From a virus (lineage: Duplodnaviria; Heunggongvirae; Uroviricota; Caudoviricetes), in the IMG/VR virus record IMGVR_UViG_3300042922_000906, positions 40,054 to 104,053 of that record: 64,000 nucleotides of DNA; one strand, given 5' to 3'. Under the pieces are notes generated by a model. It had not been told where the DNA came from. It ran no database searches and was given only the letters and a program-made list of their open reading frames with translations. Positions 1-48,636 of this stretch are shown in pieces. Made by a program: the position numbers and the translations under genes. The first letter of the stretch is position 1, and each line of letters starts with the position of its first letter.

Positions 1-98
1 GGCGTGGAATGAGGTAAACGAGAGTTTAACACATAGTTATTTTTATAGATTGGTTGTGAATAAATAGTTTAAATAGAAGGTGGAATTCATATCATAAT

Positions 99-350
99 TT
101 GAAAGGATGGATAAAAATGATGTCAATGTATGAGTATGTAAGAGATATAGTTAAAAATAGCTATAGAGCAAAAGGAAATAATGAATTAGCTGGTATGATA
201 CATGATGAAATGAATAGATATTTTAAAACTGATAATATTCATGTGTTTGTGCAAGATGGGATTATACTGGTTTATGTTGCAGATTTAAAATTATGTGAGT
301 TTAAAACTGAAATAGGAAATGACTCTATGTGGGTAACAGAAGTCATATAA
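99..350 (+). CDS. hypothetical protein
   Basis: Six-frame ORF of 83 aa in the dominant + orientation. Has an upstream AGGTGG-like SD. No recognisable motif. Confidence 0.3.
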   Translation: MKGWIKMMSMYEYVRDIVKNSYRAKGNNELAGMIHDEMNRYFKTDNIHVFVQDGIILVYVADLKLCEFKTEIGNDSMWVTEVI

Positions 351-406
351 TAGTGCATGAAATAAGATATTTGTTAAAAGTGTATAACAGAAAGGCGGAA
401 ATAGTA

Positions 407-784
407 ATGGACGAAATTAAAATTAATCATGAAGCAATTAATAGAATTGCTAATGAAATTCAGCATGAATGGAATATAGAGTTTGCAGGATATGAAGGAA
501 AGATTATCTATAGACCTCATAGAGGAGGCACTGTATTTGATTCTTTAGAAGAAGCTAAAGAGTTTGATAGTATTCAAGAAATGAAAGAATATATAGTTAA
601 ACAATGGGATAATTATTTCTTAGTTGAAGATATTGTTATAATAGGCAAGCCTTTGAATGATAATAGAATCAATTGGAAAGATGTTAGATATGTTTGCTCA
701 AAAAGATTCGGTAATGAGGATAATATAGCTAAATACGGTACACCACAATGTATAGGATATTGTGCTACAGAGTATGTAAAATGA
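407..784 (+). CDS. hypothetical protein (start moved to the internal ATG at 407 behind an AAAGGCGGA SD)
   Basis: The tracked ORF 329..784 overlaps the previous gene. The in-frame ATG at 407 has a good SD. No motif recognised. Confidence 0.35.
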   Translation: MDEIKINHEAINRIANEIQHEWNIEFAGYEGKIIYRPHRGGTVFDSLEEAKEFDSIQEMKEYIVKQWDNYFLVEDIVIIGKPLNDNRINWKDVRYVCSKRFGNEDNIAKYGTPQCIGYCATEYVK

Positions 785-838
785 AGAAAATAAGGATGTA
801 CAGACCAATAAAATAAGAATTTTAAATGGAGGGGGTTT

Positions 839-1318
839 ATGTCTGAAGCAATTAAGACACAAGATATAAATGAGTTAGAATATGGTGCTCAATATAAACA
901 ACATATATTAGAACAATATAAGTTATATGTAGAAATGGCTGACAGAATAAGCCAAAGAAGAATAACATCAAATACATTCTTTGTAACACTTACATCTTTA
1001 ATACTCACAACCTACGGAGTCATAAAGTCTTCATTATTTGTGCCAAGTATTTGTATTTTATTTGCTGGAGTGCTTTTATCGTTTTCTTGGTATAATATAG
1101 TAAATAGTTATAAACAAATTAACTCAGTAAAATGGCATTTAGTACATGAAATCGAAAAGTCGTTACCAATATGCCCATATACTTACGAATGGATAAAAGC
1201 AGGAGAAGGTAAAGTAAAAAAGAAATATAATCCTACGAGCCATATAGAAAAAAAATTACCATTAATATTTGGCTTGATATTTTTGGTACTTTTAATAAAC
1301 AGTATATTTACATATTAG
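839..1318 (+). CDS. small polytopic membrane protein (about 3 TM), candidate effector partner of the downstream TIR protein
   Basis: SD GGAGGGGG lies before the ATG. Hydrophobic helices: FFVTLTSLILTTYGVI, FVPSICILFAGVLLSFSWYNIV and a C-terminal LPLIFGLIFLVLLINSIF. It ends 18 nt before the TIR gene. Confidence 0.5.
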   Translation: MSEAIKTQDINELEYGAQYKQHILEQYKLYVEMADRISQRRITSNTFFVTLTSLILTTYGVIKSSLFVPSICILFAGVLLSFSWYNIVNSYKQINSVKWHLVHEIEKSLPICPYTYEWIKAGEGKVKKKYNPTSHIEKKLPLIFGLIFLVLLINSIFTY

Positions 1319-1335
1319 AAAGTGAGGTCTTTAGT

Positions 1336-1746
1336 ATGCCAGACTTAAAAACTTATGACTTATTTATAAGTCACGCTTGGGATTACAATAGTGAATATTA
1401 TAATCTAGAAAGAATGTTAAAGGACGCACCATATTTTTATTTTAGAAATTATAGTGTACCTCAACATGATAGTTTGCAAGTTAATACCGACTATGCTCTT
1501 GATGATGGACTATGGAAACAAATTAGACCAGTAAACACTGTATTAATTTTATCTGGAATGTATTACAATCATAGAAAATGGATTCAGAGAGAAATAGAGA
1601 TTGCTCAAGCTCTAAATAAACCAATAATTGGTGTTATTCCTTGGGGGCAAGAGAGAATTCCATCGGAAGTAAGTGGAGTTGCGAAAACAATGGTTCATTG
1701 GAACACATCATCAATAATTGATGCAATAAGAAATTACTCAATATAA
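1336..1746 (+). CDS. standalone TIR-domain protein (ThsB-like, putative NADase)
   Basis: N-terminal beta-A motif YDLFISHAWDY. An alphaC-like motif RKWIQREIEIA gives the W-x3-E arrangement typical of catalytic TIR NADases. A beta-D-like PIIGVIPWG is also present. Length 136 aa. Confidence 0.6.
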   Translation: MPDLKTYDLFISHAWDYNSEYYNLERMLKDAPYFYFRNYSVPQHDSLQVNTDYALDDGLWKQIRPVNTVLILSGMYYNHRKWIQREIEIAQALNKPIIGVIPWGQERIPSEVSGVAKTMVHWNTSSIIDAIRNYSI

Positions 1747-1751
1747 GCCAA

Positions 1752-1773
1752 TTGCTCCTATTATTAGGAGCAA
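1752..1773 (+). terminator. hairpin with an 8-bp stem (TTGCTCCT/AGGAGCAA) downstream of the TIR gene; no U-tract
   Basis: Perfect inverted repeat read directly from the sequence. May act as a terminator or an RNA stability element. Confidence 0.3.
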
Positions 1774-1822
1774 TATACATAAGGAATTAAAATACTATTT
1801 ATTATGTTTTGGAGGAAATATT

Positions 1823-2047
1823 ATGGCTTGGGAAGATGGAAATGTCAGTAGTGTAGAAGTCCTTATTATTGCAGGAGATACGTTATTTGATAGAAAAAAT
1901 TATAAACATGCTGTAAGAAAGTATCAGGAGGCATATAATAGTGCAATGTGTATTAAAAATGAAAAAACACGAAAATCATTAGCTATGTTGGCTGGAGATA
2001 AATTAAAAGAGGCACAAAGATTACGTGATATAGAAATAAGTGAATAA
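1823..2047 (+). CDS. hypothetical small helical protein
   Basis: ORF of 74 aa. The ATACATAAGGA motif at 1785-1795 precedes it. Confidence 0.35.
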   Translation: MAWEDGNVSSVEVLIIAGDTLFDRKNYKHAVRKYQEAYNSAMCIKNEKTRKSLAMLAGDKLKEAQRLRDIEISE

Positions 2048-2204
2048 TCTATATTACATTAACTAAATAAAATCCAAAATTTGTTATTTAAATGTTAATT
2101 GTTTTATTTCTGCCCTCTCTTATCCAAAATACTAACTATTCAATCCCTATTATATGCTGTACAATAATTTTGTAAACACTAATTTAGAGAGGATTGCAGC
2201 AGAT

Positions 2205-2924
2205 ATGGAAAAAATTAAAGTAATCGTTGCAGATGATAATGAAGTAATTTTAGAAGTCATGAAAGAATTAATTAACGGGCAAACGGATATGGAGGTTATA
2301 GGCGAATATAATAACGGGGAATCGGCTTATGAAGCAATAATAAAAATGCAACCTGATGTTATTATTTTGGATATATTAATGCCTATATGGGATGGATTAG
2401 AAGTATTAAAGCAGCTAAGAAATAATTATAACAAGAAAATTACTAAAATAGTTTTTTCAAGTGAGGCAAAAGAAGTTCAAAGAAAATTGGCAGATGGTGT
2501 TTTAGATGATGTATATTACTTTACAAAACCCTTTAAATTTGAGTTGTTTATTGAAAGAATTAAAATGGCATATTATGAGAGCAGTAAAAAGGATGCTGAA
2601 CATATAATTCATGAGTTTTTAGAAGGACTAGTGTTAACTGAATCAGGAAAGAAATATATATCACAAAGTGTAATGCTTCTGATCAATGATAGAACTTTAT
2701 TAACCAAGGATTTTTGTACAATTATCGCCAACAAGGAAGGGACTACTTGGAACAATATTCAAAGAAAAATAAGATATTCAATAGAACTTGCTTATAAGAG
2801 TTCTGAAAGTAGTAAATTGAATACTGCATTTGGACAATCAACATTAGGAACATTTAAAATGGACTTAAATATCAAAACTATGTTATTACATTTTAGTGAT
2901 AAGGTAAGTAAAATGATGGCCTGA
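2205..2924 (+). CDS. spo0A: Spo0A-like response regulator (receiver domain plus Spo0A_C-like DNA-binding domain)
   Basis: From the ATG at 2205 the N-terminus reads MEKIKVIVADDNEVILEVMKELINGQTDMEVIGEYNNGESAYEAIIKMQPDVIILDILMPIWDGLEVLKQL. This parallels B. subtilis Spo0A MEKIKVCVADDNREL...PDVLVLDIIMPHLDGLAVLERL, including the phospho-acceptor Asp. The C-terminus IIHEFLEG...RKIRYSIELAY...AFGQST resembles the Spo0A_C core (IIHEIGVP...RVERAIRHAIEVAW...LFGYT). Confidence 0.7.
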   Translation: MEKIKVIVADDNEVILEVMKELINGQTDMEVIGEYNNGESAYEAIIKMQPDVIILDILMPIWDGLEVLKQLRNNYNKKITKIVFSSEAKEVQRKLADGVLDDVYYFTKPFKFELFIERIKMAYYESSKKDAEHIIHEFLEGLVLTESGKKYISQSVMLLINDRTLLTKDFCTIIANKEGTTWNNIQRKIRYSIELAYKSSESSKLNTAFGQSTLGTFKMDLNIKTMLLHFSDKVSKMMA

Positions 2925-3395
2925 TGTAGATGGAAGAAACAGTAAAGAAACAATTAAAGTTTTTTAAATTAATTGTTTTAAGCAAAATGCCTATATGTAA
3001 ATGATTGCTTCTGAGTGGATGGTTATACTCAACTGTTTTACCTGTTTCTAACAATTAAGCCCTATTTACAGACAAAAGAAACTGATATACAATTGAAATT
3101 AATAAAGCTTTGAAACATAGTAACGGTACGATTTTGGAAAGATTATACTATAAAAAATTAAAGGAGTGAACTTTTAAATTATACATAAGGAATACAATTG
3201 TTAATCTTAAGAAATCGGGAATAAAACTTCCATTTACACTAATACTATGAAAATATTAACACCCTCAAATTTTATATCTTTACAATAATTTTGTTCGAGT
3301 ATATAATGGAAAAAGAACAAGTGTTCGATTTTATAAATAAGAGGTGAGCGAAAAATGTTATGTAAACTGTGGAAATATTGTAATAGGGGGTTAAA

Positions 3396-3779
3396 ATGGT
3401 TAGAGAGATTACGATGAATGAATTTGAGCAAATTATGAATGCTGCTAATGGAAACTATTTATGCACAACATTTTTCGGGTCGATAGTTGAATCCAAAACT
3501 TATAGAGGGTTTGATTTTCTAAGTGGAAGTAATGGTACTTACCTGTTTAGAGATATACTAGACGATGATTTTGAATTTAATATTGAAAAAATTAAAATAA
3601 TAACTATTGTTCATGATTATGAAAAGGACGAGGAGGAAAATCAAATTTCATTATTGTTTAGAAATGGAGATTCTTTAATAATTAATTTCTATATGAATGA
3701 TATGAATAAATTAATAAATAAGGACAAAAAGAAAGACCGTGTGCTTGTATGCGCAGCAGGTCAATATTCACTCAATTAA
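3396..3779 (+). CDS. hypothetical protein
   Basis: ORF of 127 aa with a GGGGG SD. No motif recognised. Confidence 0.35.
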   Translation: MVREITMNEFEQIMNAANGNYLCTTFFGSIVESKTYRGFDFLSGSNGTYLFRDILDDDFEFNIEKIKIITIVHDYEKDEEENQISLLFRNGDSLIINFYMNDMNKLINKDKKKDRVLVCAAGQYSLN

Positions 3780-3860
3780 AAGTATAAAGATAAGTTTATA
3801 AGTTGTCAAGGTGTGGTGGCAACTTATAAATACTATTAACTAAAACATTATAATATATTA

Positions 3861-3889
3861 TTGACAATGGACTGTATATTTGATAAAAT
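3861..3889 (+). promoter_or_regulatory. sigma-A-type promoter (TTGACA, 17 nt spacer, TAAAAT) upstream of def
   Basis: Consensus -35 at 3861-3866 and a -10 at 3884-3889. The ATACATAAGGA motif at 3950-3960 follows. Confidence 0.5.
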
Positions 3890-3970
3890 TTATACATAAT
3901 AAGGAAATAAAATCGCTGTTTTAAAGGGTATTGAAATTAAAATAAAATAATACATAAGGAGTGTTGTTAT

Positions 3971-4432
3971 ATGAAAATTGTAATAGAGGAAAAAGAACTT
4001 AGGGAAAAATGTATAGAGGTAAATGATAGTGATAAGCCGAAAGAAATAAACGAATTAATAAGTGAAATGATCAAAACAATGATTGAAAATCAAGGCGTGG
4101 GAATAGCTGCTCCACAAGTAGGAATCAATAAAAGATTATTTATTGCGGTTATTGATAAAAAAATTGAAATATTTATTAATCCTGAAGTAATAGATAAAAG
4201 TGATGAAATGACAGAGGACACAGAAGGGTGTTTAAGTGTTCCTAACTGCTTTGGAACAGTCCCAAGACATAAAAATATTACAATAAAATATTGTAACGGC
4301 AGAGAGTTTATAGAACAAAAATTCGAAGGATTTAATGCTAGAGTGGTACAACATGAATATGATCATTTGGAAGGGATTTTATATACTGATAAGGCTGTTA
4401 ATATCCAAAGTAAAGAGTTGATTAAGGTTTAA
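3971..4432 (+). CDS. def: peptide deformylase
   Basis: All three PDF motifs are present: GVGIAAPQVG, EGCLSVP and QHEYDHLEG (HExxH). Confidence 0.85.
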   Translation: MKIVIEEKELREKCIEVNDSDKPKEINELISEMIKTMIENQGVGIAAPQVGINKRLFIAVIDKKIEIFINPEVIDKSDEMTEDTEGCLSVPNCFGTVPRHKNITIKYCNGREFIEQKFEGFNARVVQHEYDHLEGILYTDKAVNIQSKELIKV

Positions 4433-4468
4433 ACCAATAGAATTTGTGATTTAATGGGAGGTTTTATA

Positions 4469-4630
4469 ATGGATAAATTTAAAAAATGGTTAGATGAATC
4501 TATAGAAACTATAGAGGGTGCAATTAATGAATCTGGATGTAATAGCAGAGATTGGCTTAAAGACAGATTATATATGTTGAATCTTGTTAAAGAAAATTAC
4601 AATAAGTTTAACAATGATTCAATGAAATAG
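4469..4630 (+). CDS. small hypothetical protein (53 aa; not in the ORF track)
   Basis: GGGAGG SD lies 8 nt before the ATG. The open frame runs MDKFKKWLDESIETIEG... Confidence 0.3.
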   Translation: MDKFKKWLDESIETIEGAINESGCNSRDWLKDRLYMLNLVKENYNKFNNDSMK

Positions 4631-4656
4631 TGGTTTTAAGTTAAAGGAGATTAAAT

Positions 4657-4932
4657 ATGTTTACTTGGGATTTGGAAAAATGTGATATGGAAATATATGA
4701 ACATGGACATATGGTAATGATGTGTTGTATTCCTAATAAAGATTGTAATAATTTTATTGAAGAGATATCAAATATTATTGGTTATAAACTTGATTATTCA
4801 AATGCGGCTGGAAGAAATATAATTAAATGCTATGCAAAAGATTATGATAATGTATCAAAAATACTTCCTAATTTGGATAAATCACTGTTTACAAAATATA
4901 ACATGGACGATAGTGGATATAACTTTTATTAA
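4657..4932 (+). CDS. hypothetical Cys/His-containing protein
   Basis: ORF of 91 aa with an AAGGAG SD. Confidence 0.35.
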   Translation: MFTWDLEKCDMEIYEHGHMVMMCCIPNKDCNNFIEEISNIIGYKLDYSNAAGRNIIKCYAKDYDNVSKILPNLDKSLFTKYNMDDSGYNFY

Positions 4933-5055
4933 ATAGGCAAACAATACAGTAGATTTAAGTAAATTAATATAATAGGATGTTGTGTATGGGCAAATATCAA
5001 AACGTTCAAGAAATATTAAAAGGTGTGAATGTATTAGAGGAGGTGATTTATTTAA

Positions 5056-5289
5056 ATGATAATGAATATGACAATAACTAGAACATCAAATATAGATTAC
5101 GATTCCATGAAATATATCAATGATGGATTTATTAGTAAGTATTCAGCAGATTGGAATGACACAATAGAAATATTGGACATTAACAACGGAGAAATTAAAT
5201 TTATTCAAGTCAAAAATTTATCTTTATATGATCATAGGCTTATTATGTTTAGTGATCAATGGCATATTATAGAAGCATTAAGTAAATAA
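5056..5289 (+). CDS. hypothetical protein
   Basis: ORF of 77 aa with a GGAGG SD. Confidence 0.3.
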   Translation: MIMNMTITRTSNIDYDSMKYINDGFISKYSADWNDTIEILDINNGEIKFIQVKNLSLYDHRLIMFSDQWHIIEALSK

Positions 5290-5340
5290 CAGATTAGATT
5301 TTAAAGATAAGTAAAAATATGGTATGATGATTATATAGGA

Positions 5341-5643
5341 GTGGTGACTATGTTATTTCTTCAGGGGGAAAATCAAAAAGCAGTAGTATTTAATGAATTC
5401 GGTAGGTCTAACGATATCGTTATTCTATCTAATACATATTTGAGCATGGGAATTGATTATTACCAGTATGAATTTTTTGAAAATGCCAGAGAAATTTTTA
5501 AAGACATCTTAATTGAACAAGAAGTTAGATGGTTGTTGCTTTATACCAACGAATTAAAAGAGAACTTAAAAAAAGAAATTAACTGGATTATACAACTTGA
5601 AAAAGAAGGTATTATTGGTAATAGTATAATAGCTTGTAGATAG
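5341..5643 (+). CDS. hypothetical protein
   Basis: ORF of 100 aa. The start codon is ambiguous: GTG at 5341 or ATG at 5350. Confidence 0.3.
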   Translation: MVTMLFLQGENQKAVVFNEFGRSNDIVILSNTYLSMGIDYYQYEFFENAREIFKDILIEQEVRWLLLYTNELKENLKKEINWIIQLEKEGIIGNSIIACR

Positions 5644-5681
5644 ATAAAAATGATATTTTAAGTGGTAAGGAGATATAGATT

Positions 5682-6116
5682 ATGAAATTAGAAGATGCAA
5701 TAGAAATAGCGGCAAAGGCGCATAGGGGTCAATTAGATAAAGCAGGGCAACCATACATACTTCATCCATTACACGTAATGATGCAATGTAGACACAATGA
5801 AGATGTAAGAATAGTGGCAGTACTGCATGATGTAATTGAAGATGGAGTACAAGGTTATAGAGACTTTATAATTAATACTGGATTTAGACAAGAAATTATT
5901 GATGCTTTGGATTGTTTGACTCATGATAAAAAAGAGGACTACTTTGACTATATCAGCAGAATTAAAACCAATTCTTTAGCAAAGGAAGTAAAACTTTTAG
6001 ATTTAAAACATAATTGTGATCTAGAAAGGTTGCAAAAAGTTACTTATATAGATTTAAAAAGAGTTGCTAAATATAAAAAGGCTATTAATATTTTATTAGA
6101 TATTGAAGAAGATTGA
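5682..6116 (+). CDS. HD-domain (p)ppGpp hydrolase-like protein (small alarmone hydrolase / Mesh1-like)
   Basis: AHRGQLDKAGQPYILHPLHV...AVLHDVIEDG matches the RelA/SpoT-type HD hydrolase signature (H...HD...ED). Length 144 aa. Confidence 0.6.
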   Translation: MKLEDAIEIAAKAHRGQLDKAGQPYILHPLHVMMQCRHNEDVRIVAVLHDVIEDGVQGYRDFIINTGFRQEIIDALDCLTHDKKEDYFDYISRIKTNSLAKEVKLLDLKHNCDLERLQKVTYIDLKRVAKYKKAINILLDIEED

Positions 6117-6157
6117 AAATTTGAAATGGTTATTTTAAAAGGAGGCTAAAATTAATT

Positions 6158-6850
6158 ATGAGTGATATTGAAAAAGATTTAAAAAATTCAGCAGGAGATT
6201 ATGTGTATTCAGTTTCAAAAGGAATAGTTTCTAGTGTACCAGTTGCAGGTTCGGCAATATCGGAAATTCTATTTTCTGTTATATCTTCACCAATTGAAAA
6301 AAGAAAGAATGAGTGGATGATAAGGTTGTCTGAATCATTATTTGAATTAACGAAAAAAGTGGATAATTTTAATATTAATAATTTATCTGATAATGAGTTG
6401 TTTATAACCATAGTGTCACAAGCTACTCAAATTGCTTTAAGAAATCATCGACAAGAAAAACTAATGGCTTTAAGAAATGCTATAATTAATACTGCCTTGA
6501 ATATTAAAATTGCAGAAATAGAGCAAACAACATTTATTCAATTAGTAGATGAATTAAATATTTTACATTTAAGAATTTTATTGTTTTTCAAAAATCCTTC
6601 TCAATGGTTCATAGACAACAATGTTCGAAGACCCAATATTATTATGGGTTCTCCGCTTAGTATTTTAGAAATTGCATATAGTGATTTTTCAGATAATCAA
6701 CTTACAAATAGACTTATAAAAGATTTATATAATAGAGGATTATTTAGCACCGACAGCCTTGGCGGGATCATGACAGAAAGTGGGATATACGCAAGCAGAC
6801 TTACAGAGTATGGCCAGAGATTCTTAAACTATATAACTATAAATGATTGA
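6158..6850 (+). CDS. hypothetical protein (230 aa)
   Basis: ORF with a GGAGG SD. No motif recognised. Confidence 0.4.
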   Translation: MSDIEKDLKNSAGDYVYSVSKGIVSSVPVAGSAISEILFSVISSPIEKRKNEWMIRLSESLFELTKKVDNFNINNLSDNELFITIVSQATQIALRNHRQEKLMALRNAIINTALNIKIAEIEQTTFIQLVDELNILHLRILLFFKNPSQWFIDNNVRRPNIIMGSPLSILEIAYSDFSDNQLTNRLIKDLYNRGLFSTDSLGGIMTESGIYASRLTEYGQRFLNYITIND

Positions 6851-6856
6851 AACAAA

Positions 6857-7168
6857 TTGCGAGTTTTATTCACTTATAAAGAGGATGGATTAACTATGTT
6901 AGATTTTCATAATGTAAAAAGATATAAAAGATTTAACCTTCCAGAAGTTGATGGTGACAAATATTTAAGAAAAGATTTAGAAAAGTACATAATCATGCGT
7001 GATAATTTAATAAACAGCAAGAAAATTGATGTTAAAAAGCTGGAAGAACAAGAACTCAATTTTTTACAGGATGATTATAAATTCTTATGGGATTTTAGAG
7101 GTACAGGTGCAAGTAAGTTTATGGATTTAATTAAATTATATAAAGTGGAATGTAAGATTGCAGATTAG
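6857..7168 (+). CDS. hypothetical protein
   Basis: ORF of 103 aa. Confidence 0.3.
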   Translation: MRVLFTYKEDGLTMLDFHNVKRYKRFNLPEVDGDKYLRKDLEKYIIMRDNLINSKKIDVKKLEEQELNFLQDDYKFLWDFRGTGASKFMDLIKLYKVECKIAD

Positions 7169-7216
7169 CAAAGAGAACAGAAGATGATAAAATGTGAATT
7201 TTAAAAGGAGGGTCAT

Positions 7217-7399
7217 ATGGATATAGATAATATTACCATAATTGATTCAAACGATGGATGGGTTACCGTTTTCATTAACGGAGAACAATCTTATCAAAGC
7301 GAAAAAGAAAAGTTTAAATTTTCTGATTTAATTGGATGTCTACAAGTTAATTGGGATAAATTTAATGTAATACCAATGAGAAAGTTAATAAATGAATAA
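7217..7399 (+). CDS. hypothetical protein
   Basis: ORF of 60 aa with a GGAGGG SD. Confidence 0.3.
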   Translation: MDIDNITIIDSNDGWVTVFINGEQSYQSEKEKFKFSDLIGCLQVNWDKFNVIPMRKLINE

Positions 7400-7625
7400 A
7401 AAACGTATTTTAAAGGAGGATTATTATATGCAAGGGTTTACTGTCATATGCAATAAGTGTAGTAATCAAGCTAATCTAACAATAAAAAAATATGACGATA
7501 TGCCAGAGAATGTTTCATTTATAGAATCTGATAATGATACACTACAATTTTGCAAAAGCGATCATGATGTTGAAGAGATAGTATGCAAAAAATGTGGGAA
7601 TAAAGTAGTAAATGATTTTCGATAA
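7392..7625 (+). CDS. zinc-ribbon protein
   Basis: Two CxxC pairs (CNKCS...CKKCGNK). GGAGG SD. Confidence 0.35.
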   Translation: MNKKRILKEDYYMQGFTVICNKCSNQANLTIKKYDDMPENVSFIESDNDTLQFCKSDHDVEEIVCKKCGNKVVNDFR

Positions 7626-7703
7626 AAGACGGATTTTAAGCGCGGTACAAGTCTAATACGCACCAAATAAAAATTTTTATGAATCAAATAGGAGGATTAA
7701 TAA

Positions 7704-7922
7704 ATGAAAATAAGATTATTACAAAAAGAGTGTGACAATGGTAACTTGACTTGTAGGGATTGTACATATTACGAATCAGGAGATTCAAGTATTGGGCTTA
7801 ATGACGGCTGTACTCACCCGATTTTATATGATGAAGAAGGTAACATTATCGATGAGGTTGAAAGTCTAATTTTGGATTGTATAAACAACCCTAAACACTG
7901 CATCCTTTTAGAAAGGAAGTAA
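7704..7922 (+). CDS. Cys-rich hypothetical protein
   Basis: ORF of 72 aa with an AGGAGG SD. Confidence 0.35.
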   Translation: MKIRLLQKECDNGNLTCRDCTYYESGDSSIGLNDGCTHPILYDEEGNIIDEVESLILDCINNPKHCILLERK

Positions 7923-7923
7923 T

Positions 7924-8229
7924 ATGAACAATAAAGATAGGCGAGTATTTAATGCAATACGTGAGTACACACAAATATTTAAAGCTTTAAATCCTGCTGA
8001 TACTTATGCAAACTCAATTCATCAAGAAGCTAGCCATTATGCACATATGATTATTGAAGATTTGATTAGAAAACATTTAGCTGGACTTGATGTTACTCAA
8101 GAAATTGAATTATTAAAAGGAAACTATGAGAACTTTAGTTTAAAGTCAAAAGAACATAGTTTAAAACAAAAAAATTACAGTGATTTATTAGGCGATTTAA
8201 TGAAAAGCAACAGTGATTTTAAACAGTAA
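7924..8229 (+). CDS. hypothetical protein
   Basis: ORF of 101 aa abutting the previous stop codon. Confidence 0.35.
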   Translation: MNNKDRRVFNAIREYTQIFKALNPADTYANSIHQEASHYAHMIIEDLIRKHLAGLDVTQEIELLKGNYENFSLKSKEHSLKQKNYSDLLGDLMKSNSDFKQ

Positions 8230-9727: not shown

Positions 9728-10102
9728 GTGGGAATTATTTATTATCATCAGATAGTAACATTTTTTTATCGGTTTGGAAAAGAGCAGATTTATTTGTCAG
9801 AGCCAGAAGTAAATTCAATTGATAAAATAGTAAAGAATGATTCGTTAGCTGATATTCTAATTATCATAATGTTTTTAACTGAAGCAGCATTTTATCTTAT
9901 ATCTATGTTTTATTTTAGATATAAAATTAACACTTACATATCTTTATTTCTACTTATAAATTCTTCAATTGGAAATACCAAGTTAATAATTAGTTTAAAA
10001 TATAAAAAATCACTTCACTATTGGTTTTCAACATGGAACAAACTTATTAAAGTTGCGGCATTGGTTTATGTGATCGGTATATGCATATATCTGTTAATTT
10101 AA
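9728..10102 (+). CDS. hypothetical membrane protein
   Basis: Three to four hydrophobic helices. No clear SD. Confidence 0.25.
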   Translation: MGIIYYHQIVTFFYRFGKEQIYLSEPEVNSIDKIVKNDSLADILIIIMFLTEAAFYLISMFYFRYKINTYISLFLLINSSIGNTKLIISLKYKKSLHYWFSTWNKLIKVAALVYVIGICIYLLI

Positions 10103-10145
10103 TAAAAACTTAACTAAAATATTATAAAATAAATTGTAAAAATCT

Positions 10146-10175
10146 ATTGACAGTAAACTGGTAAAAATATATAAT
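10146..10175 (+). promoter_or_regulatory. sigma-A-type promoter (TTGACA, 18 nt spacer, TATAAT) with an upstream TTAACTAAAATATTATAAAATAAAT element
   Basis: Consensus hexamers. The upstream AT element also recurs at 15281 and 16331. Confidence 0.5.
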
Positions 10176-10213
10176 TAATTCAAGGTTGTAGTTGCAGGAA
10201 AATAACCATTGAA

Positions 10214-10435
10214 ATGGAGGTTTTATTGGGTATGGATATCAAAGATGTTTTTATTAGTAAAGCTAGAAAATATAATAATTATCAAGAGACAGTTTGTGTT
10301 AAAGATAGAAAATGTATAAATTGTACCAGATGGAGATTAAGTTTTCCATATACCTGTAATGACTATGATATGTATACAATCAAAGCAGAAACTTGTTTGA
10401 ATTATACAACAGAATCAAGGCCTGAAGTTGATTAA
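10214..10435 (+). CDS. Cys-rich hypothetical protein
   Basis: ORF of 73 aa. An alternative start at 10236 is possible. Confidence 0.3.
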   Translation: MEVLLGMDIKDVFISKARKYNNYQETVCVKDRKCINCTRWRLSFPYTCNDYDMYTIKAETCLNYTTESRPEVD

Positions 10436-10486
10436 GGTAATTAAAATATTCATTTTAAAGGTTAAATAGAAAGGATATGATTATAG

Positions 10487-11023
10487 ATGAAAGCAACTGG
10501 AATAGTTAGACGTATAGACGATTTAGGAAGAGTTGTAATACCTAGAGAAACACGGAGAGCATTAAGAATTAAAGAAGGAGATCCTCTGGAGATTTTTATT
10601 GAAGATGGTGGAGTAATATTAAAAAAATACAGACCATTTCAAGATTTAATGGAATTTTCAGAGAAGTACGCAGAGTCTTTACATAAAACCTCTGGACATA
10701 TTTGTTTCATTACTGATAGAGATACAATAATTTCTGTAAATGGTACATCTAAAAGAGATTTTCTTGAAAAACCTATTAGTGAGAAGTTGGAAAATATTAT
10801 TGATGAAAGACATTTGTTTATCACAAATACCGAACAGATAAATATAGTTAATGGTCAGAGCTTGAATTTTCATTCTATCATAATAAAACCAATTATGTCT
10901 GAAGGTGAAACCTGTGGTTCAGTAATACTTGCAAGTACAGTTAATAATATAGTTTTTGGAGAAGTTGAAATTAAACTTGTTGAAAATGCAGCCGATTTTT
11001 TAGGTAAACAACTAGAAGATTAA
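10487..11023 (+). CDS. spoVT: SpoVT-like regulator (AbrB-type swapped-hairpin N-domain plus GAF-like C-domain)
   Basis: The N-terminus GIVRRIDDLGRVVIPRETRRALRIKEGDPLEIF is the AbrB/SpoVT DNA-binding fold. Total length 178 aa with a C-terminal sensory domain, matching SpoVT architecture. Confidence 0.75.
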   Translation: MKATGIVRRIDDLGRVVIPRETRRALRIKEGDPLEIFIEDGGVILKKYRPFQDLMEFSEKYAESLHKTSGHICFITDRDTIISVNGTSKRDFLEKPISEKLENIIDERHLFITNTEQINIVNGQSLNFHSIIIKPIMSEGETCGSVILASTVNNIVFGEVEIKLVENAADFLGKQLED

Positions 11024-12163: not shown

Positions 12164-13063
12164 ATGATATTGAACCAAAATAAACCTTTACCAGAGTTTG
12201 TAATAAATTTCTTAGACTATAAAAAGAATAATGAAAAATTAAGTGACAATACAATAATTGCTTATCAATTAGATATCTATTCTTTTTTAGAGTGGTTGAA
12301 AGAGTATTTCAATACTACTGAAGTATCTTTAAACTTGTTTAACAAATTAACCATTCAAGATGTAGTGAAATGGCAGCGAACACTAAAAAATCAAGCTTCA
12401 ACAGAAGGAAGAAAAATATCTAGCATAAGATTATTGTTTGATTACCTTAATAAATTTAAATTGGTTGATAATGATGTTATGCATAATATTAAGAAGCCTA
12501 AGATACCTAAAAAGCCAAGAAAACACTTGGATTTTGAAACCTCAAAAGAATTGATTCATGTAGCCGAGGTTGAAGGTAGTTTACGAGATGTCGCTATAAT
12601 CAAATTATTTTTGTATAGCGGTATGAGAATAAGCGAAATCACAAATCTTGACTTAGGTGATATAAAAGGTAATAGGGTATATATAAGAGCTGCCAAAGGT
12701 GAAAAAGATAGAATAGTCTATATTGACGAAGATGCAGTTCAGGCAATAAATAATTGGTTGGTAATAAGACCAAAAACAACATGTGATTCAATATTTGTTT
12801 TACATTACTTTAACAAAGAACCATATCGAATTACTGATGCATCAATAAGGAAGATGATTAAGAAATTTGCAGACATAATTGAAGTTGAATTTACTCCTCA
12901 TATCTTAAGACATACTTATGCAACAGATCAATTAGATGCTGGAACACCTTTACCATCAATTCAAAAAGCTTTAGGCCATAGTGATATAAAGACAACTCAA
13001 ATATATGCTCACACAACAGAAAAACAATTAATGCAAATGGCAGGAAAGGTAAAATACAAATAG
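12164..13063 (+). CDS. tyrosine site-specific recombinase / phage integrase (XerC/D-like)
   Basis: N-terminal SAM-like core-binding region. The C-terminal catalytic motifs HILRHTYAT...LGHSDIKTTQIYAH give the R...HxxR...Y tyrosine nucleophile arrangement. Confidence 0.85.
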   Translation: MILNQNKPLPEFVINFLDYKKNNEKLSDNTIIAYQLDIYSFLEWLKEYFNTTEVSLNLFNKLTIQDVVKWQRTLKNQASTEGRKISSIRLLFDYLNKFKLVDNDVMHNIKKPKIPKKPRKHLDFETSKELIHVAEVEGSLRDVAIIKLFLYSGMRISEITNLDLGDIKGNRVYIRAAKGEKDRIVYIDEDAVQAINNWLVIRPKTTCDSIFVLHYFNKEPYRITDASIRKMIKKFADIIEVEFTPHILRHTYATDQLDAGTPLPSIQKALGHSDIKTTQIYAHTTEKQLMQMAGKVKYK

Positions 13064-15397: not shown

Positions 15398-16300
15398 ATG
15401 AAAACTTTTTATGACAAATTTAAATCATACAATAAACCGATCTACGAAAATAAAAATTGGATTGATATGAAAGAAGTATCCAGACTAGTTAATTTAGCCA
15501 AAGGTAATCGAAATACTTCTCAATTTCTAACAGATATGAATTTGACATGTGAAACAGAACAAATTATTGATATGATAAATGGCCGGTATAATTCTTGTAT
15601 AAGACTACATCACTTGAAAAAGATTGCAAAAGCATCTGAAGGAAGAGTGGATTTTGATCAGCTAAATGCTATATTTAAATTTATGGAAAATAATTCTTTG
15701 GATGAATTAAAGAATATTAATATCGAGCGTAGTGATATTTGTCAAGTTAATCTTGGCGAAGCGCTTGACAATGAGCATGGTGGCATAAAGATGTGCGTGG
15801 TTATTTCAAATAATAAAGGAAATGGTTCAAGTGCAACTTTTCAATTAATCCCTTTGTCTTCATCTATCGGGAAAAATTACATTCCTTCACATGTGCCTGT
15901 GGGTTTGGAATCAGGAATATTAAAACCTTCTGTAGCAATGATTGAACAACTTAGAGTTAAAACAAAGGCAAGTCTTTTATTTGATGGTGAGATAATTAAA
16001 GTCGGAAAAGTATCTGAAGCAACCATGATAAAAATAGAATCAGCGATTAAAAAGCAGTTTGGTATGATTAGTCTTAATTTTAATCCAAGATTTGCGGAAG
16101 AAATGGTAAGAGCAATATTAGGAGTTATGAATGTAGTTGAAGATGATGATAATCTTGTTATAGCTAAAAACCTCTTATGGAAAGATCTTGAAGCTTATTG
16201 TGCAGATTATGATAAGGATGCCAAATCAATTTTTAATGAGTTTACAACTAAAATTGCGCGCGGTGAACCTGTTTTTAAGAGATTCTGTCTTGTCGGCTGA
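15398..16300 (+). CDS. MazF/PemK-fold endoribonuclease-domain protein with N- and C-terminal extensions
   Basis: The central region GDICQVNLGEALDNEHGGIKMCVVISNN...FQLIPLSSS...PSHVPV parallels the MazF core (GDIvlvdF.P..GsEq.g.RPavVls...vvPiTs). Confidence 0.5.
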   Translation: MKTFYDKFKSYNKPIYENKNWIDMKEVSRLVNLAKGNRNTSQFLTDMNLTCETEQIIDMINGRYNSCIRLHHLKKIAKASEGRVDFDQLNAIFKFMENNSLDELKNINIERSDICQVNLGEALDNEHGGIKMCVVISNNKGNGSSATFQLIPLSSSIGKNYIPSHVPVGLESGILKPSVAMIEQLRVKTKASLLFDGEIIKVGKVSEATMIKIESAIKKQFGMISLNFNPRFAEEMVRAILGVMNVVEDDDNLVIAKNLLWKDLEAYCADYDKDAKSIFNEFTTKIARGEPVFKRFCLVG

Positions 16301-16438: not shown

Positions 16439-17764
16439 ATGAAAGCTAACAAAGAAGAACTTATAAATGTATTATATCCTGCAATAGAACGGTCAAGAAG
16501 AAACAATGAAGTAAAAGATGTAAATTATTTAAAAGATAAATTAGCAGAACATAATATAGGAATTGGAAAGGTTCAGGGTATTTATGACACAAATATTCCT
16601 TTAGAAACATTATCTAATGCCGACTTATACTTGTTTACTAAATATTTGTTTGAAACAACTAAAAATGAAACAATTAACATTACAAATTGGTTTTATGATG
16701 AAGAAATAAAAACTCATGATCAACATACTGAAGATGTATTTTATAAAGATAACAAGATTATTTTATATGATGTAAGTCAAACTTCGGAGTATGAATATTT
16801 AGTATCGAAAATGACTTATGTTGAAATGAGTAATATTATTAATCAGAAATTATTAACATATAATTATCGTACTCAGAGAGAAGCAAGAATAGTTTATTTT
16901 GGAAATGAATTTATTAAAAGACCTGAAGTAAAGTCAAATAAGATTATGGACATGTTTGAGATGATGAAAACAGGTTTTGAAGCCAATTTGATATCTCTTA
17001 ACATTCGTAAAATTGGGACAGAAAAATTTGTATATGATGAAAAGAAGCGAATTTTGATTATCGAAGTTGATAATGATAATACTTTTTTGGACATAATTGA
17101 TGGTTTTCATAGGTGGCTTGCAGCAACAGCTTGCATAATGAACAATCCAAGTAATCAAGGATATTTTCATGCTAAAATATATAATATGACAGAAAGTAAA
17201 GCACAAAGCTATTTAGCAAGAGAAGAGAAAGCATCACCAATGAATTTATCTCATGTTGCAGGTTATGATAATAGAGATGCTTATGTAACATTTACCAAAG
17301 ATATTAATTCTTATGGTGAGAATAGAAAAAGTAATGAATTATTTGGTATGATAGCGCTTGATGATATTGAGTATTTGTCACAGAATAAATATACTACTGT
17401 TGAGGTGTTTTCAAAAGGATTGAAGCATAATTTTAAATTTAAAGATATGAATGCCAGAGAATTAGGAAAGTTACAAGATTTTTTTGTTAAATATTTTAAT
17501 GAATTATTAGGTATTTTACAGGAGAAGTATTCAGGTGAAAATAGCGTTATCTTTGAAAAGAAAATTTTTATCGGTTATATCGCTTTGGGCAGCAAATTAA
17601 TAAACAAGAATGATTGGAAATTATTATTAGAGCAGGCGCTTTCTTCGATAGATTTTTCAAGATCGAGTGATTGGGAAAATATAGGTTTATTCAAAGATGA
17701 TGTTAATAATAGTAATGTGAAACTGATAAGTAATTATTTTAAGAAAGAAGTTGGTGTGGATTAA
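16439..17764 (+). CDS. ParB/Srx-fold (DGQHR / DUF262-like) domain protein
   Basis: TQREARIV (GERRxRA-like) followed by LDIIDGFHRWLAA (a DGxHR box). Length 441 aa. Confidence 0.4.
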   Translation: MKANKEELINVLYPAIERSRRNNEVKDVNYLKDKLAEHNIGIGKVQGIYDTNIPLETLSNADLYLFTKYLFETTKNETINITNWFYDEEIKTHDQHTEDVFYKDNKIILYDVSQTSEYEYLVSKMTYVEMSNIINQKLLTYNYRTQREARIVYFGNEFIKRPEVKSNKIMDMFEMMKTGFEANLISLNIRKIGTEKFVYDEKKRILIIEVDNDNTFLDIIDGFHRWLAATACIMNNPSNQGYFHAKIYNMTESKAQSYLAREEKASPMNLSHVAGYDNRDAYVTFTKDINSYGENRKSNELFGMIALDDIEYLSQNKYTTVEVFSKGLKHNFKFKDMNARELGKLQDFFVKYFNELLGILQEKYSGENSVIFEKKIFIGYIALGSKLINKNDWKLLLEQALSSIDFSRSSDWENIGLFKDDVNNSNVKLISNYFKKEVGVD

Positions 17765-18699
17765 TGTATAATAAAGAGATTAAGGAAAAGTTTATTAATG
17801 AACACTATAACACCGAAGAAAGTAAAAAAGTAGTTGAGTGTGCTTTTAATAATTATAGTAAAATTGAAGAACAATATGATACTGATCTATATCATTTCAA
17901 TTTTTATCAAAGAAATGAATTGCTTATGAATCTATCTTCGTCTAGTATAAAGGCAATAAGAAAAGATTATAATTATATTCAAAGTTATGTACGGTGGGCA
18001 GAAAATAGGGGAATGTGTCCTCTTAATATGGCTTTTATAGATTTGTCAACTAATGAATTAAAACAATTTGTTTCAAATGCAAAGAAAGATCAATTTATTA
18101 AAAACAGAGAAGAATTATATAATAATTTTTTACCTAAGATACATAATGTAATAGACAAGGCCATGATAATATTAATATATGAGGGTGTGCTAGGTAAGGA
18201 AGCTGTTGATCTAGTTAATTTTACTAAAGAGAATATAGAATTTGATAAACAACGATTTATATTTAATACGAAAAAGGGAACAAGAATTATTCCTAACATT
18301 GATCAGCAATCAATAGATATACTAAAAAAATCAATTAGTGAGACAATTTACGAACTAGACAATGGTAATTCTAATGCTAAAGCACCAACTAGAAATTTAG
18401 CTAATTCAGATTATATTGTAAGACCAATTATTGGTTTTGAAGATAAAATTAATAGAATGGGTGTTATAACTAAGTTTTCAAAAATAAAGATTTGGACTGA
18501 AAAACGGTATATAAAACCAAAAAGTATTCATTATTCAGGGATGTTTGATAAGTTAAGAAATATTGAAATTAGTGAAAAAAGAGATTTAGTTACTTATGAT
18601 TATGAAGATGTTTTAACATTATATGGATATAATGCAAAGCAATCAGCACATTTAAAATTGGATTATGAATATTTTTGTGAGATGTTTTACGGAGAATAA
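17764..18699 (+). CDS. hypothetical protein translationally coupled to the ParB-like gene (TAATG overlap)
   Basis: ORF of 311 aa whose start overlaps the upstream stop. Confidence 0.4.
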   Translation: MYNKEIKEKFINEHYNTEESKKVVECAFNNYSKIEEQYDTDLYHFNFYQRNELLMNLSSSSIKAIRKDYNYIQSYVRWAENRGMCPLNMAFIDLSTNELKQFVSNAKKDQFIKNREELYNNFLPKIHNVIDKAMIILIYEGVLGKEAVDLVNFTKENIEFDKQRFIFNTKKGTRIIPNIDQQSIDILKKSISETIYELDNGNSNAKAPTRNLANSDYIVRPIIGFEDKINRMGVITKFSKIKIWTEKRYIKPKSIHYSGMFDKLRNIEISEKRDLVTYDYEDVLTLYGYNAKQSAHLKLDYEYFCEMFYGE

Positions 18700-31304: not shown

Positions 31305-31535
31305 TTGAGAAATTGGATTAAAGTAGCAATAGGGTTGTTTATAATATTTTTTCTATTTGCTAATCCCTATACAAGAATGATCGTTTTGTTTTTACTTCCA
31401 TTAGGTTCAGGCTTTGATGATTTAATTGAAATAGTAGCTTTGGTTTTATTGATAATATTAGGTATCTATAAAATCATAGAGAATTGGGATTACATAGTTG
31501 ATTGGTTTAAATATGATTATAAAAATAAATATTGA
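31305..31535 (+). CDS. small membrane protein
   Basis: ORF of 76 aa with two TM helices. Confidence 0.3.
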   Translation: MRNWIKVAIGLFIIFFLFANPYTRMIVLFLLPLGSGFDDLIEIVALVLLIILGIYKIIENWDYIVDWFKYDYKNKY

Positions 31536-32476
31536 TTAGGAGAATAAAAATGAAAAATATTAAAAAGTTATTGGTTTTAGTTTTAATAATTGTGTTAAGT
31601 ATAAGTTTTACAGGATGTTATCACTGGAGTGAAGTAAGTTCAAATCAAATAGGTTTACAAATGGATGATGGAGTAACAATATCCAAGGTTGTAAATTCTG
31701 GAAGATATACAGATTGGGGTTGGTTTGCAAATATTGAAAAGATAGATACATCTGCAAAGACCGTAATATGGGAAGACCCTGATATGTGGACTTCAGACAA
31801 GCAACCAGTTAAGTTTAAAATTTCTGTTACATATTCAAGAAGTAGAGATGAAAAGGCAGCTAAAATATTATGGGAAAAATATAATTCTGAGGCCACAGAT
31901 GACAAAACACTACAGCAACTTGTTACGACTCGAATTCCAAGAGTAGCAAAACAAGTAACTACAAGTATGACACTAGACCAGATGTTGGGAATTACTTCTG
32001 AAAATTCAGCAGCCAACACCAATGAAGAAAAGGGAAGAGAACTGCTTCAAGATAATATGTCAAAATTATTAAAAGAAGAGTTAAGTGAATGTGGTATTGA
32101 TTTGTTAGATGTAGGTGTTAATGATATAGGCGTGGACGAAGATTATGCTAAACAGCTTAAAGAAAAAGCAGTATCTAAAGTAGCTTCAGAGGTTTCAAAA
32201 GAAAAAACTGCACAATTAAATGAACAGTTAAACCAAGAAAAAGCACAAACACTTATTGATCAAGAAGTTGCAAACAGAAAAAACAATGTGTTGGGTAAAG
32301 AAAACGAAATTTATTTAACAAATCCGAGAGCGTATGAACTGGAAAGATTAAGATTACTAAAAGATGTAATCGGGGATAGTGATAAAATCTATTTTGTTCC
32401 ATCTGATGCAGATTTGAATTTGGTATTGTCGGGTTCTGGTAATGTTAGCGTCCCGATAGATAATAAAGAAAAGTAG
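31532..32476 (+). CDS. lipoprotein with a coiled-coil C-terminal half
   Basis: Signal peptide plus a lipobox (LVLIIVLSISFTGC). Length 314 aa. Confidence 0.5.
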   Translation: MIRRIKMKNIKKLLVLVLIIVLSISFTGCYHWSEVSSNQIGLQMDDGVTISKVVNSGRYTDWGWFANIEKIDTSAKTVIWEDPDMWTSDKQPVKFKISVTYSRSRDEKAAKILWEKYNSEATDDKTLQQLVTTRIPRVAKQVTTSMTLDQMLGITSENSAANTNEEKGRELLQDNMSKLLKEELSECGIDLLDVGVNDIGVDEDYAKQLKEKAVSKVASEVSKEKTAQLNEQLNQEKAQTLIDQEVANRKNNVLGKENEIYLTNPRAYELERLRLLKDVIGDSDKIYFVPSDADLNLVLSGSGNVSVPIDNKEK

Positions 32477-32704
32477 AATAATATAGTATATCGTTTGTAG
32501 GTAACGTATAACCTTCAATCCATAAGGATGTAACAAAATGGCTAATGTGCATGACTTTGACTCATGAAATAGAGTTTCGATTACTCTCATCCTTGCCAAT
32601 AACATCGTGTAATTGCTGTTGTGCTTTGTTATTCATGTGTACCCTCCTTTTTTTGAAAGCGTTTGTAGGTATCGCTTGAGAAATCAGAATAACCTTCAGA
32701 TATA

Positions 32705-32780
32705 TTGCGGATTAGCCAAGTAGGTAAGGCAGTAGATTTTGATTCTATCATACTCAGGTTCAAGTCCTGAATCCGTAGCC
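32705..32780 (+). tRNA. tRNA-Gln (anticodon UUG), CCA encoded
   Basis: Hand-folded cloverleaf. Acceptor stem TGCGGAT/ATCCGTA with a U1:A72 pair and G73, as in bacterial tRNA-Gln. U8 is present. The D-arm has GG in its loop. Anticodon stem GTAGA/TCTAT with loop TTTTGAT (U33, UUG, A37). T-arm TCAGG-TTCAAGT-CCTGA. The 3' CCA lies at 32778-32780. Confidence 0.8.
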
Positions 32781-33156
32781 AATTAATTTAATAAAGGTGA
32801 CTGAAAGTTTAGGGTTAAGGCTTAGACAAAACCAATAAACGATGATGAGTAACGAGGGTGACAGCTTATATGTCTTGAATATACCTAAAGTGGGTATCTA
32901 GGAAGATTAGTTGAAATGATACATACTACTTCCAAAAACTATAATAATTTGACGTGATACTGTGTCTAGGATATTTTGAATATTACTAGAATCGTGAAAA
33001 TTGGAGTTACTAATTAAGTCGGCCGAAGTAGTCAATATAAGTGAACGTGCTATATAAGCTAAATGGTTCTACCTGTATTAAATTAAATACCATAAAATGG
33101 ACATTTTAATGTGTGATTAAATAAAATATTATACATAAGGAAGGAAATAGAAAAAA

Positions 33157-48609: not shown

Positions 48610-48636
48610 TGATTTTATGTGACGAAGGGAGAAAAT

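Follow-up and report, generated by a model that had tools for sequence, protein, structure and literature searches.

A two-gene cassette for a ThsB-type TIR and an 8xMP membrane protein in a large phage, a probable Thoeris-type abortive-infection module

The DNA stretch analyzed here (the window) comprises 64,000 nucleotides of the Caudoviricetes record IMGVR_UViG_3300042922_000906 of IMG/VR (positions 40,054 to 104,053) and carries near its start two adjacent genes, one for a small membrane protein of the 8xMP family and one for a standalone TIR domain. We conclude that a large phage, one that infects a low-GC Firmicute, probably carries this pair as an accessory Thoeris-type module for abortive infection through TIR signaling, with the TIR protein as predicted infection sensor and signal synthase and the 8xMP protein as predicted signal-gated membrane effector. 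An earlier note on this DNA, made from the sequence alone, had suggested a Thoeris-like immunity module; family matches, an invariant glutamate, and linkage of the two families at 63 of 80 genomic loci support that reading. Yirmiya et al. (December 2025 bioRxiv) reported 29 putative Thoeris configurations, with types V to XI validated (10.64898/2025.12.03.692087), and Table S1 of that preprint lists a "3TM" class, with TIR clusters 2734565194 and 2556961318 and without a type number (10.64898/2025.12.03.692087). By sequence, fold, and linkage, the window pair fits the Thoeris-type systems and this 3TM class.

The 8xMP open reading frame (ORF) occupies positions 839..1318 on the + strand (159 amino acids [aa]; ATG start, TAG stop at 1316-1318) and is followed at 1336..1746, on the same strand, by the ORF of the standalone ThsB-type TIR (136 aa, ATG start). 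Both ORFs lie where the earlier note had placed them, and the spacer between them measures 17 nt (1319..1335, + strand) rather than the 18 nt given there. Read from the sequence, a Shine-Dalgarno-like element, GGAGGGGG, precedes the 8xMP ATG at 828..835 (+ strand), and the spacer holds a GTGAGG resembling a ribosome-binding site, which would fit co-translation of the two genes. In window positions 1-3200, scans for promoters and terminators performed no better than chance; transcription of the pair together with its same-strand neighbors is therefore probable. Both ORFs are far beyond chance frames, with Pfam scores above the cutoffs and hundreds of homologs for each. A 74-aa ORF right after the TIR gene (1823-2047) is kept in contigs of the same phage. 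It was not counted in the module because it has only subthreshold TPR matches and the closest relative does not have it next to its pair.

The TIR protein matched Pfam PF08937 (ThsB_TIR, of the ThsB/DUF1863 type) with 52 bits (cutoff 21.2, E = 1e-13), the PADLOC ThsB models (best PDLC00418, E = 3.1e-13), and PHROG family phrog_6988 (E = 1.1e-35). Sequence searches of the PDB retrieved MTH538 (1eiw, E = 4e-9) and the Paracoccus TIR, PdTIR (3h16, E = 0.011). Its AlphaFold2 (AF2) model has a predicted local distance difference test score (pLDDT) of 81 and a five-strand beta-alpha, flavodoxin-like fold. When compared with the PDB by Foldseek, the model matched MTH538 (1eiw, E = 6.6e-6, TM score 0.65-0.78), EcThsB (8wcf, E = 3.5e-4), EcThsB2 and the SARM1 TIR (like EcThsB at E < 1e-3), SpbK, and ThsB-Tad3. 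The TIR fold, for which the earlier note had proposed a structural check, is borne out by the matches to MTH538, EcThsB, EcThsB2, and SARM1.

Both landmarks that had been read from the 136-aa protein are present. YDLFISHAWDY (residues 7-17; 1354..1386, + strand) forms the first beta-strand (residues 7-11 in the model) and the next loop of the TIR fold, and RKWIQREIE spans residues 80-88. The latter includes the WxxxE motif W82-I-Q-R-E86 (1579..1593, + strand), in which W82 is encoded at 1579-1581 and the predicted catalytic glutamate, E86, at 1591-1593; WIQRE aligns with the W..xE of PdTIR. Residues F10, S12, H13, W82, E86, K95, and P96 are invariant in 121/121 TIR homologs, and W15 is kept in 118/121; the glutamate whose conservation had been in question is thus among the invariant positions. 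In PsTIR of Pseudomonas sp. 1-7, a type IV Thoeris protein, the substitution E79Q of the predicted active-site glutamate abolishes defense (10.1101/2024.10.24.620036). From the shared W-x-E motif context, rather than from a direct alignment, we infer that PsTIR E79 is the counterpart of E86.

The partner protein matched Pfam PF24838 (8xMP, "octameric membrane protein family") with 125 bits (cutoff 30, E = 2.2e-36), its residues 24-156 covering profile positions 1-135 of 136. A homolog search returned 498 sequences, and PF24838 was present in all 120 among the matches listed; some homologs (P0024 and others) bear the NCBI name "RipA family octameric membrane protein." When 1.84 billion cluster representatives (50% identity) were searched with a profile, 4,174 8xMP members were found at E <= 0.001. 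The window protein has no match in the PADLOC models or PHROG, no NCBIfam model matches it, and Pfam at E <= 1 yielded neither SLATT nor PF10028. Ten long members of the family have N-terminal extensions without any domain match, and literature searches on 8xMP and RipA returned nothing explaining the family name or the octamer claim.

The AF2 monomer of the 8xMP protein (pLDDT 83) has helices at residues 12-62, 67-106, 115-120, 127-130, and 135-158. A long N-terminal helix runs into the first transmembrane (TM) helix, TM1; a 4-residue turn follows, and TM2 is prolonged as a cytoplasmic helix. A Kyte-Doolittle scan detected only TM2 (peak 64-88) and TM3 (140-158), TM1 being weakly hydrophobic and below the threshold. 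Three TM helices fit the AF2 helices, and the preprint's label for the class is likewise "3TM." The TM1-TM2 helical hairpin (approximately residues 44-62 and 67-87), placed from AF2 and hydropathy, is encoded at 968..1099, and TM3 (approximately residues 135-158; hydropathy peak at 140-158, AF2 helix pLDDT >90) at 1241..1312, both on the + strand.

The two parts best conserved in the 8xMP family, ~40 N-terminal residues and ~47 residues between TM2 and TM3, are both predicted to be cytoplasmic. Within the N-terminal cytoplasmic helix, the near-invariant residues 26-41 (QYKLYVEMADRISQRR; codons at 914..961, + strand) form the best conserved block of the family alignment (A2) and are a candidate part of a ligand-binding site: Y27, Y30, V31, D35, S38, R40, and R41 occur in 121/121 sequences and K28 in 120/121. 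The TM2-TM3 segment (residues 88-134; 1100..1240, + strand) reads SYK..N..K...E..LP..Y..EW...G...Y.P in the alignment. Its residues Y91, N95, K98, E106, L109, P110, Y114, E117, W118, G124, Y130, and P132 are kept in 115-121/121 sequences, as are R36 and E137, and its charge balance (8 K/R versus 4 D/E) fits the positive-inside rule. The description of this protein in the earlier note as a 3-TM protein with no soluble domain therefore stands in part: the protein is small, AF2 fits three TM helices and hydropathy is clear for TM2 and TM3, but conserved cytoplasmic segments are present.

Linkage of the two families was analyzed at 80 8xMP-centered genomic loci from Bacillota, Pseudomonadota, Cyanobacteria, Planctomycetota, Actinomycetota, Patescibacteria, and several archaea, and at eight viral loci. 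An 8xMP gene was scored as linked when a TIR-superfamily gene lay on the same strand within 300 bp, as detected with profiles for the window-type TIR (A1), a second TIR family of ~129 aa (A3), and DUF4062. By this criterion, 63 of the 80 genomic 8xMP genes (79%) had a TIR-superfamily neighbor, upstream at 55 loci and downstream at 14, with 6 flanked on both sides, and so did 7 of the 8 viral ones. The A1 profile alone linked 39/80, an undercount that rose to 63/80 once A3 and DUF4062 were added. The A3 family, directly upstream of many 8xMP genes, matched PF08937 in 28/29 cases. Additional downstream neighbors of 8xMP are TIR_2, TIR, and SEFIR proteins, and other 8xMP loci adjoin type I restriction, STAND NTPase, caspase, AbiC-like, and AAA_15 genes. 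Most members of the 8xMP family are chromosomal, with others on plasmids and prophages, and the two-gene unit itself is found on bacterial and archaeal chromosomes and on plasmids. The pairing of 8xMP and TIR genes is not due to chance.

In L172, which holds the closest relative of this pair (89% identity for 8xMP, 71% for the TIR), the two genes lie at 10001-10510 and 10498-10908 and overlap by 13 nt. This relative adjoins AIPR abortive-infection, HTH, and TnpB-like genes and has no flanks in common with the window. Since the pair is kept while the flanks differ, the conserved and mobile unit is the pair itself. The AIPR (PF10592) gene directly follows the pair in this relative (L172:11302-13059 and L173:6630-8387), and Lon_C/ChlI-like and Cas12f1/TnpB-like genes lie near it, in what looks like a defense-island context.

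Some other 8xMP loci have distinctive arrangements. At the Comamonadaceae-type loci L047, L049, L051, L060, L064, and L078, a well-conserved DUF4062 protein of ~260 aa is encoded directly downstream of 8xMP; L049 and L060 have an extra ~129-aa ThsB_TIR upstream, so that 8xMP is flanked on both sides by TIR-superfamily genes, as in multi-ThsB Thoeris operons. A metagenome-assembled genome of Methanotrichaceae (L020) carries a second, partial 8xMP-like ORF (7952-8170, E = 2.3e-21) ~1.5 kb downstream of a full 8xMP gene, the upstream neighbor of which encodes a pentapeptide-repeat protein, not a TIR.

Seen from the TIR side, the association is broader. Among 80 viral contigs with a window-type TIR, only 4 carried 8xMP; SLATT_1/DUF4231 lay upstream at 53-56 loci and a caspase-like gene downstream at ~18-20, often near an integrase. 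The nearest relatives of the window TIR include 8xMP-linked proteins (63, 62.5, and 60% identical) interleaved with SLATT-linked ones (60 and 58%). L125 and L126 encode TIRs with 100% identity to EcTIR, which belongs to a type IV Thoeris system of E. coli 328; the window TIR and EcTIR are 46% identical. The same TIR family thus swaps SLATT, caspase, and 8xMP partners, indicating that one TIR family serves several interchangeable effectors. An analogy with SLATT effectors drawn in the earlier note holds for the company that this TIR family keeps, but 8xMP is PF24838, and SLATT homology was not supported (hhalign profile-profile probability 27%, no SLATT match at E <= 1). Clostridium phage phiCDKH01 of C. 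difficile (L174, MN718463.1: 8558-10249) encodes, beside an integrase, the SLATT-like gp16 (E = 1.3e-41 against the SLATT profile) and the window-type TIR gp14. Both are annotated only as hypothetical proteins, and on sequence grounds they are an unannotated type VII Thoeris-like pair.

We propose the following mechanism for the Thoeris-type cassette. The data show the identity and fold of the two proteins, the conservation of their key residues, their linkage, and the mobility of the cassette, whereas we infer the trigger, the product, ligand binding, the oligomeric state, and killing. The ThsB-type TIR would be idle until an infecting phage is detected and would then turn nicotinamide adenine dinucleotide (NAD+) into a cyclic ADP-ribose (cADPR) isomer through Glu86. 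Canonical cADPR and N7-cADPR are the best product candidates because they are made by characterized TIRs of the same family. EcTIR produces N7-cADPR upon infection, activating a caspase-like effector (10.1101/2024.10.24.620036), and the same caspase is activated by PsTIR, which shares 56% identity with the TIR of L050, a member of the A3 family most often found beside 8xMP. TIR cluster 2734565194 also holds the validated TIRs of type VII (SLATT) and type VIII (CMP hydrolase) Thoeris, the product of which is canonical cADPR (10.64898/2025.12.03.692087). The signal would bind the cytoplasmic face of 8xMP at its conserved, largely basic and aromatic residues (K28, R36, R40, R41, and K98, together with Tyr, Trp, and Glu residues), and 8xMP may be a ring-shaped oligomer, an octamer according to the Pfam name. 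Binding would open or assemble a membrane-breaching pore, so that membrane integrity would be lost and the cell stopped before the cycle of the intruder ends. For the phage, the cassette would shield the infected or lysogenized cell, and hence the resident phage, from competitors (superinfection exclusion).

Two characterized effectors provide precedent for the last steps. ThsF (DUF2270/PF10028), the type V Thoeris effector, has three TM helices, a predicted ring channel, and positively charged pockets between protomers, and is activated by 3'cADPR (10.64898/2025.12.03.692087). MisC, the effector of type II Metis, also has three TM helices and, in an AlphaFold3 prediction, assembles as an octameric ring; m6dAMP, bound in a conserved intracellular pocket, activates it (10.1101/2025.11.05.686725). 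Small 3-TM ring-forming proteins can therefore be nucleotide-gated killers.

Several observations weigh against an abortive-infection cassette. There is no evident reason for a suicide module in a large SPO1-like phage. PDB searches with the 8xMP sequence and the monomer model found no solved structure resembling it by sequence or fold, the 148 representatives scanned with TIR profiles included no TIR-8xMP fusion, and 17 of the 80 genomic 8xMP genes are without an adjacent TIR. The NCBI name "RipA" presumably refers to a Francisella membrane protein that is not known as a defense gene product. No TIR+8xMP or 3TM system is among those assayed in Table S2 of the preprint (10.64898/2025.12.03.692087).

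The surroundings of the pair are those of a large phage. The window has 28% GC, and nearly all of its genes are on the + strand; its PHROG matches include DNA ligase, RNA ligase, DnaB-like helicase, and NAMPT. A 681-aa protein is ~69% identical to proteins of 154-162 kb Bacillus myoviruses such as BCP78 and TsarBomba, and the exact pair proteins recur on contigs of up to 140.8 kb. A megablast search of window positions 1-8000 against deposited phages gave no match. 8xMP was found in 1 and the window-type TIR in 2 of 50,697 deposited phage records; this phage has therefore acquired the pair as an accessory.

Upstream of the pair, on the source contig beyond the window, lie many small unannotated genes. 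About 5 kb upstream and outside the window is a GmrSD_N (DUF262) gene (388 aa, L169:3704-4870), possibly a type IV restriction-like defense gene in the same accessory region. Shortly after the pair, 2154-2924 encodes a response regulator with receiver and Spo0A_C domains, resembling the sporulation regulator Spo0A. Peptide deformylase (PF01327) is encoded at 3971-4432, and the 144-aa product of 5682-6116, which matches HD_4 weakly, is possibly a small alarmone hydrolase. Farther along are a tyrosine integrase (12164-13063), a 300-aa protein with a PemK/MazF toxin domain (15398-16300), and an MrpR-like recombinase (17764-18699). These three genes suggest that the element may persist in its host. 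Their presence is unexpected in a relative of SPO1-like Bacillus myoviruses and may point to a lifestyle that is temperate or plasmid-like, or to more accessory cassettes. Two tRNA-Gln(TTG) genes ~100 nt apart (32524-32598 and 32706-32781) are preceded by a gene for an SPFH/Band 7 protein (31532-32476).

A gene resembling those for phosphoribosyl pyrophosphate (PRPP) synthetase (Pribosyltran/Pribosyl_synth, 48619-49419) lies directly upstream of a NAMPT-like gene (49441-50925; phrog_448, E = 1.9e-192). Together they resemble the two-gene NARP1 pathway of phages, which reconstitutes NAD+ and so counters NAD+-depleting immunity. Such likely NAD+-salvage genes are notable in a phage that also encodes a TIR that would consume NAD+.

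Some of these genes bear on the alternative that the pair serves the phage's own ends, as counter-defense that consumes or mimics host TIR signals, in host takeover, or as a signal-gated lysis or holin-like timer. The pair does lie among early or accessory genes, in a phage with likely counter-defense genes elsewhere (the PRPP-synthetase-like and NAMPT-like genes and the HD_4 alarmone-hydrolase-like gene), and both of its genes are very rare in isolated phages. We nevertheless consider this alternative unlikely. The same two-gene unit is found on bacterial and archaeal chromosomes and on plasmids, its closest relative is non-syntenic and sits beside an Abi gene, and the known anti-Thoeris proteins considered here are sponges, not TIRs. 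The called genes 10 kb upstream and ~6.8 kb downstream of the pair contain no lysin domain. A phage holin or lysis cassette was rejected, there being no lysin among these genes and no PHROG match for 8xMP, whose family is mostly chromosomal and TIR-linked; the membrane protein is thus not the phage holin or structural gene that the earlier note had named as the outcome to check for. Beyond its phage location, nothing positive supports a use by the phage itself, and the same holds for the TIR-based counter-defense that had been offered as an alternative there.

The two proteins might also have the opposite roles, with 8xMP as a sensor or anchor that responds, for example, to membrane perturbation at phage DNA entry, and the TIR as an NAD+-depleting killer. 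Many bacterial TIRs are NADase effectors (such cases are excluded from the preprint), the catalytic glutamate of the window TIR is intact, and 8xMP has no enzymatic domain. We regard this arrangement as quite improbable because, in every validated system, TIRs of this family produce a signal that activates a separate effector (N7-cADPR for EcTIR, cADPR in types VII and VIII). The swapping of SLATT, caspase, and 8xMP partners is expected of interchangeable effectors, not of sensors, and the best conserved parts of 8xMP are predicted to face the cytoplasm. It is hardly credible that 8xMP is a housekeeping RipA-like membrane protein lying beside the TIR gene by coincidence, as the NCBI name of some homologs and the loci without an adjacent TIR might suggest, given same-strand linkage within 300 bp at 79% of loci across phyla and three TIR-superfamily families, genes that overlap or lie a few nt apart, a pair kept despite differing flanks, and the occurrence of the 8xMP family on plasmids and prophages as well.

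Within the Thoeris-type reading, a more specific version appears doubtful to us: that 8xMP is a distinct channel gated by a cADPR isomer, and thus a further Thoeris effector type, used by an SPO1-like phage to exclude competitors or as a killing or lysis switch, with the NARP1-like genes offsetting the NAD+ cost.

If the Thoeris-type assignment is correct, 8xMP, with about 4,200 clusters at 50% identity, would be one more effector family of TIR-based immunity and would join the emerging small, three-helix, ring-forming, nucleotide-gated membrane killers exemplified by ThsF and MisC. The comparative data supply candidate ligands (cADPR and N7-cADPR), a predicted catalytic residue (E86), and a small set of cytoplasmic 8xMP residues that do not vary. 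A phage with both likely NAD+-salvage counter-defense genes and an NAD+-consuming immune module would fit the picture of phages trading defense cassettes to fight one another. No new category is opened, since the TIR + 8xMP configuration has already been cataloged computationally, and many variants of TIR plus membrane effector are already expected by specialists.

Compared with known systems, the window pair shares with canonical type I and II Thoeris a ThsB-type TIR as sensor and signal producer. The canonical effectors are SIR2-SLOG or TM-Macro proteins, whereas no SIR2, SLOG, or Macro domain was found in the pair or in the called genes 10 kb upstream and ~6.8 kb downstream, in agreement with the earlier note, which had set the pair apart from ThsA/ThsB. 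Type V Thoeris resembles it in having a small 3-TM effector, ThsF, but differs in the Pfam family of that effector (8xMP has no PF10028 match) and in its TIR clusters. MisC of type II Metis is likewise a small 3-TM protein. It is paired with a HAD phosphatase and triggered by m6dAMP, whereas the partner of 8xMP is a TIR. No HAD phosphatase match was found among the 8xMP neighbors scanned, and we therefore rejected the 8xMP loci as Metis operons.

Type IV Thoeris (TIR plus the caspase-like ThsE) is closer on the TIR side, EcTIR being related to the window TIR (46%) and the catalytic glutamate being needed for defense, but its effector is a soluble arginine-specific protease, whereas the window partner is a membrane protein. 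The likeness to type VII Thoeris (ThsB plus the SLATT protein ThsH, signaling by cADPR) extends to the TIR subfamily and the gene order. The identity of SLATT-linked TIRs to the window TIR reaches 60%, and L009 and L017 have 8xMP-linked TIRs that are 62% identical to the type VII TIR of Pseudohongiella. Type VII systems, which are common on prophages, have the gene order of the window, with the gene for a small TM effector ahead of the TIR gene. The type VII effector, however, is a SLATT_1/DUF4231 protein with two TM helices, whereas 8xMP has a third TM helix and other conserved cytoplasmic motifs.

The closest counterpart is the 3TM class of the preprint, which has both a TIR cluster and an effector family in common with the window pair; the accession PF24838 does not occur in the preprint. 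The 3TM TIR 2676542066 is 100% identical to the TIR of Anaerobium acetethylicum (L004:6389-6829), the ORF of which begins inside the 3' end of an 8xMP ORF (L004:5959-6420). This 3TM TIR is thus an 8xMP-linked TIR, and the TIR + 8xMP configuration is already part of the preprint's catalog. The window TIR is 59% identical to the 3TM-labeled TIR 2678864786 and 34-45% identical to 11 other 3TM-labeled TIRs compared, and the best matches of most of the other compared 3TM TIRs are loci carrying 8xMP. The class is listed only computationally in the preprint, whereas the copy in the window sits on a large phage; the window pair is a phage-borne example of the computationally cataloged 3TM class.

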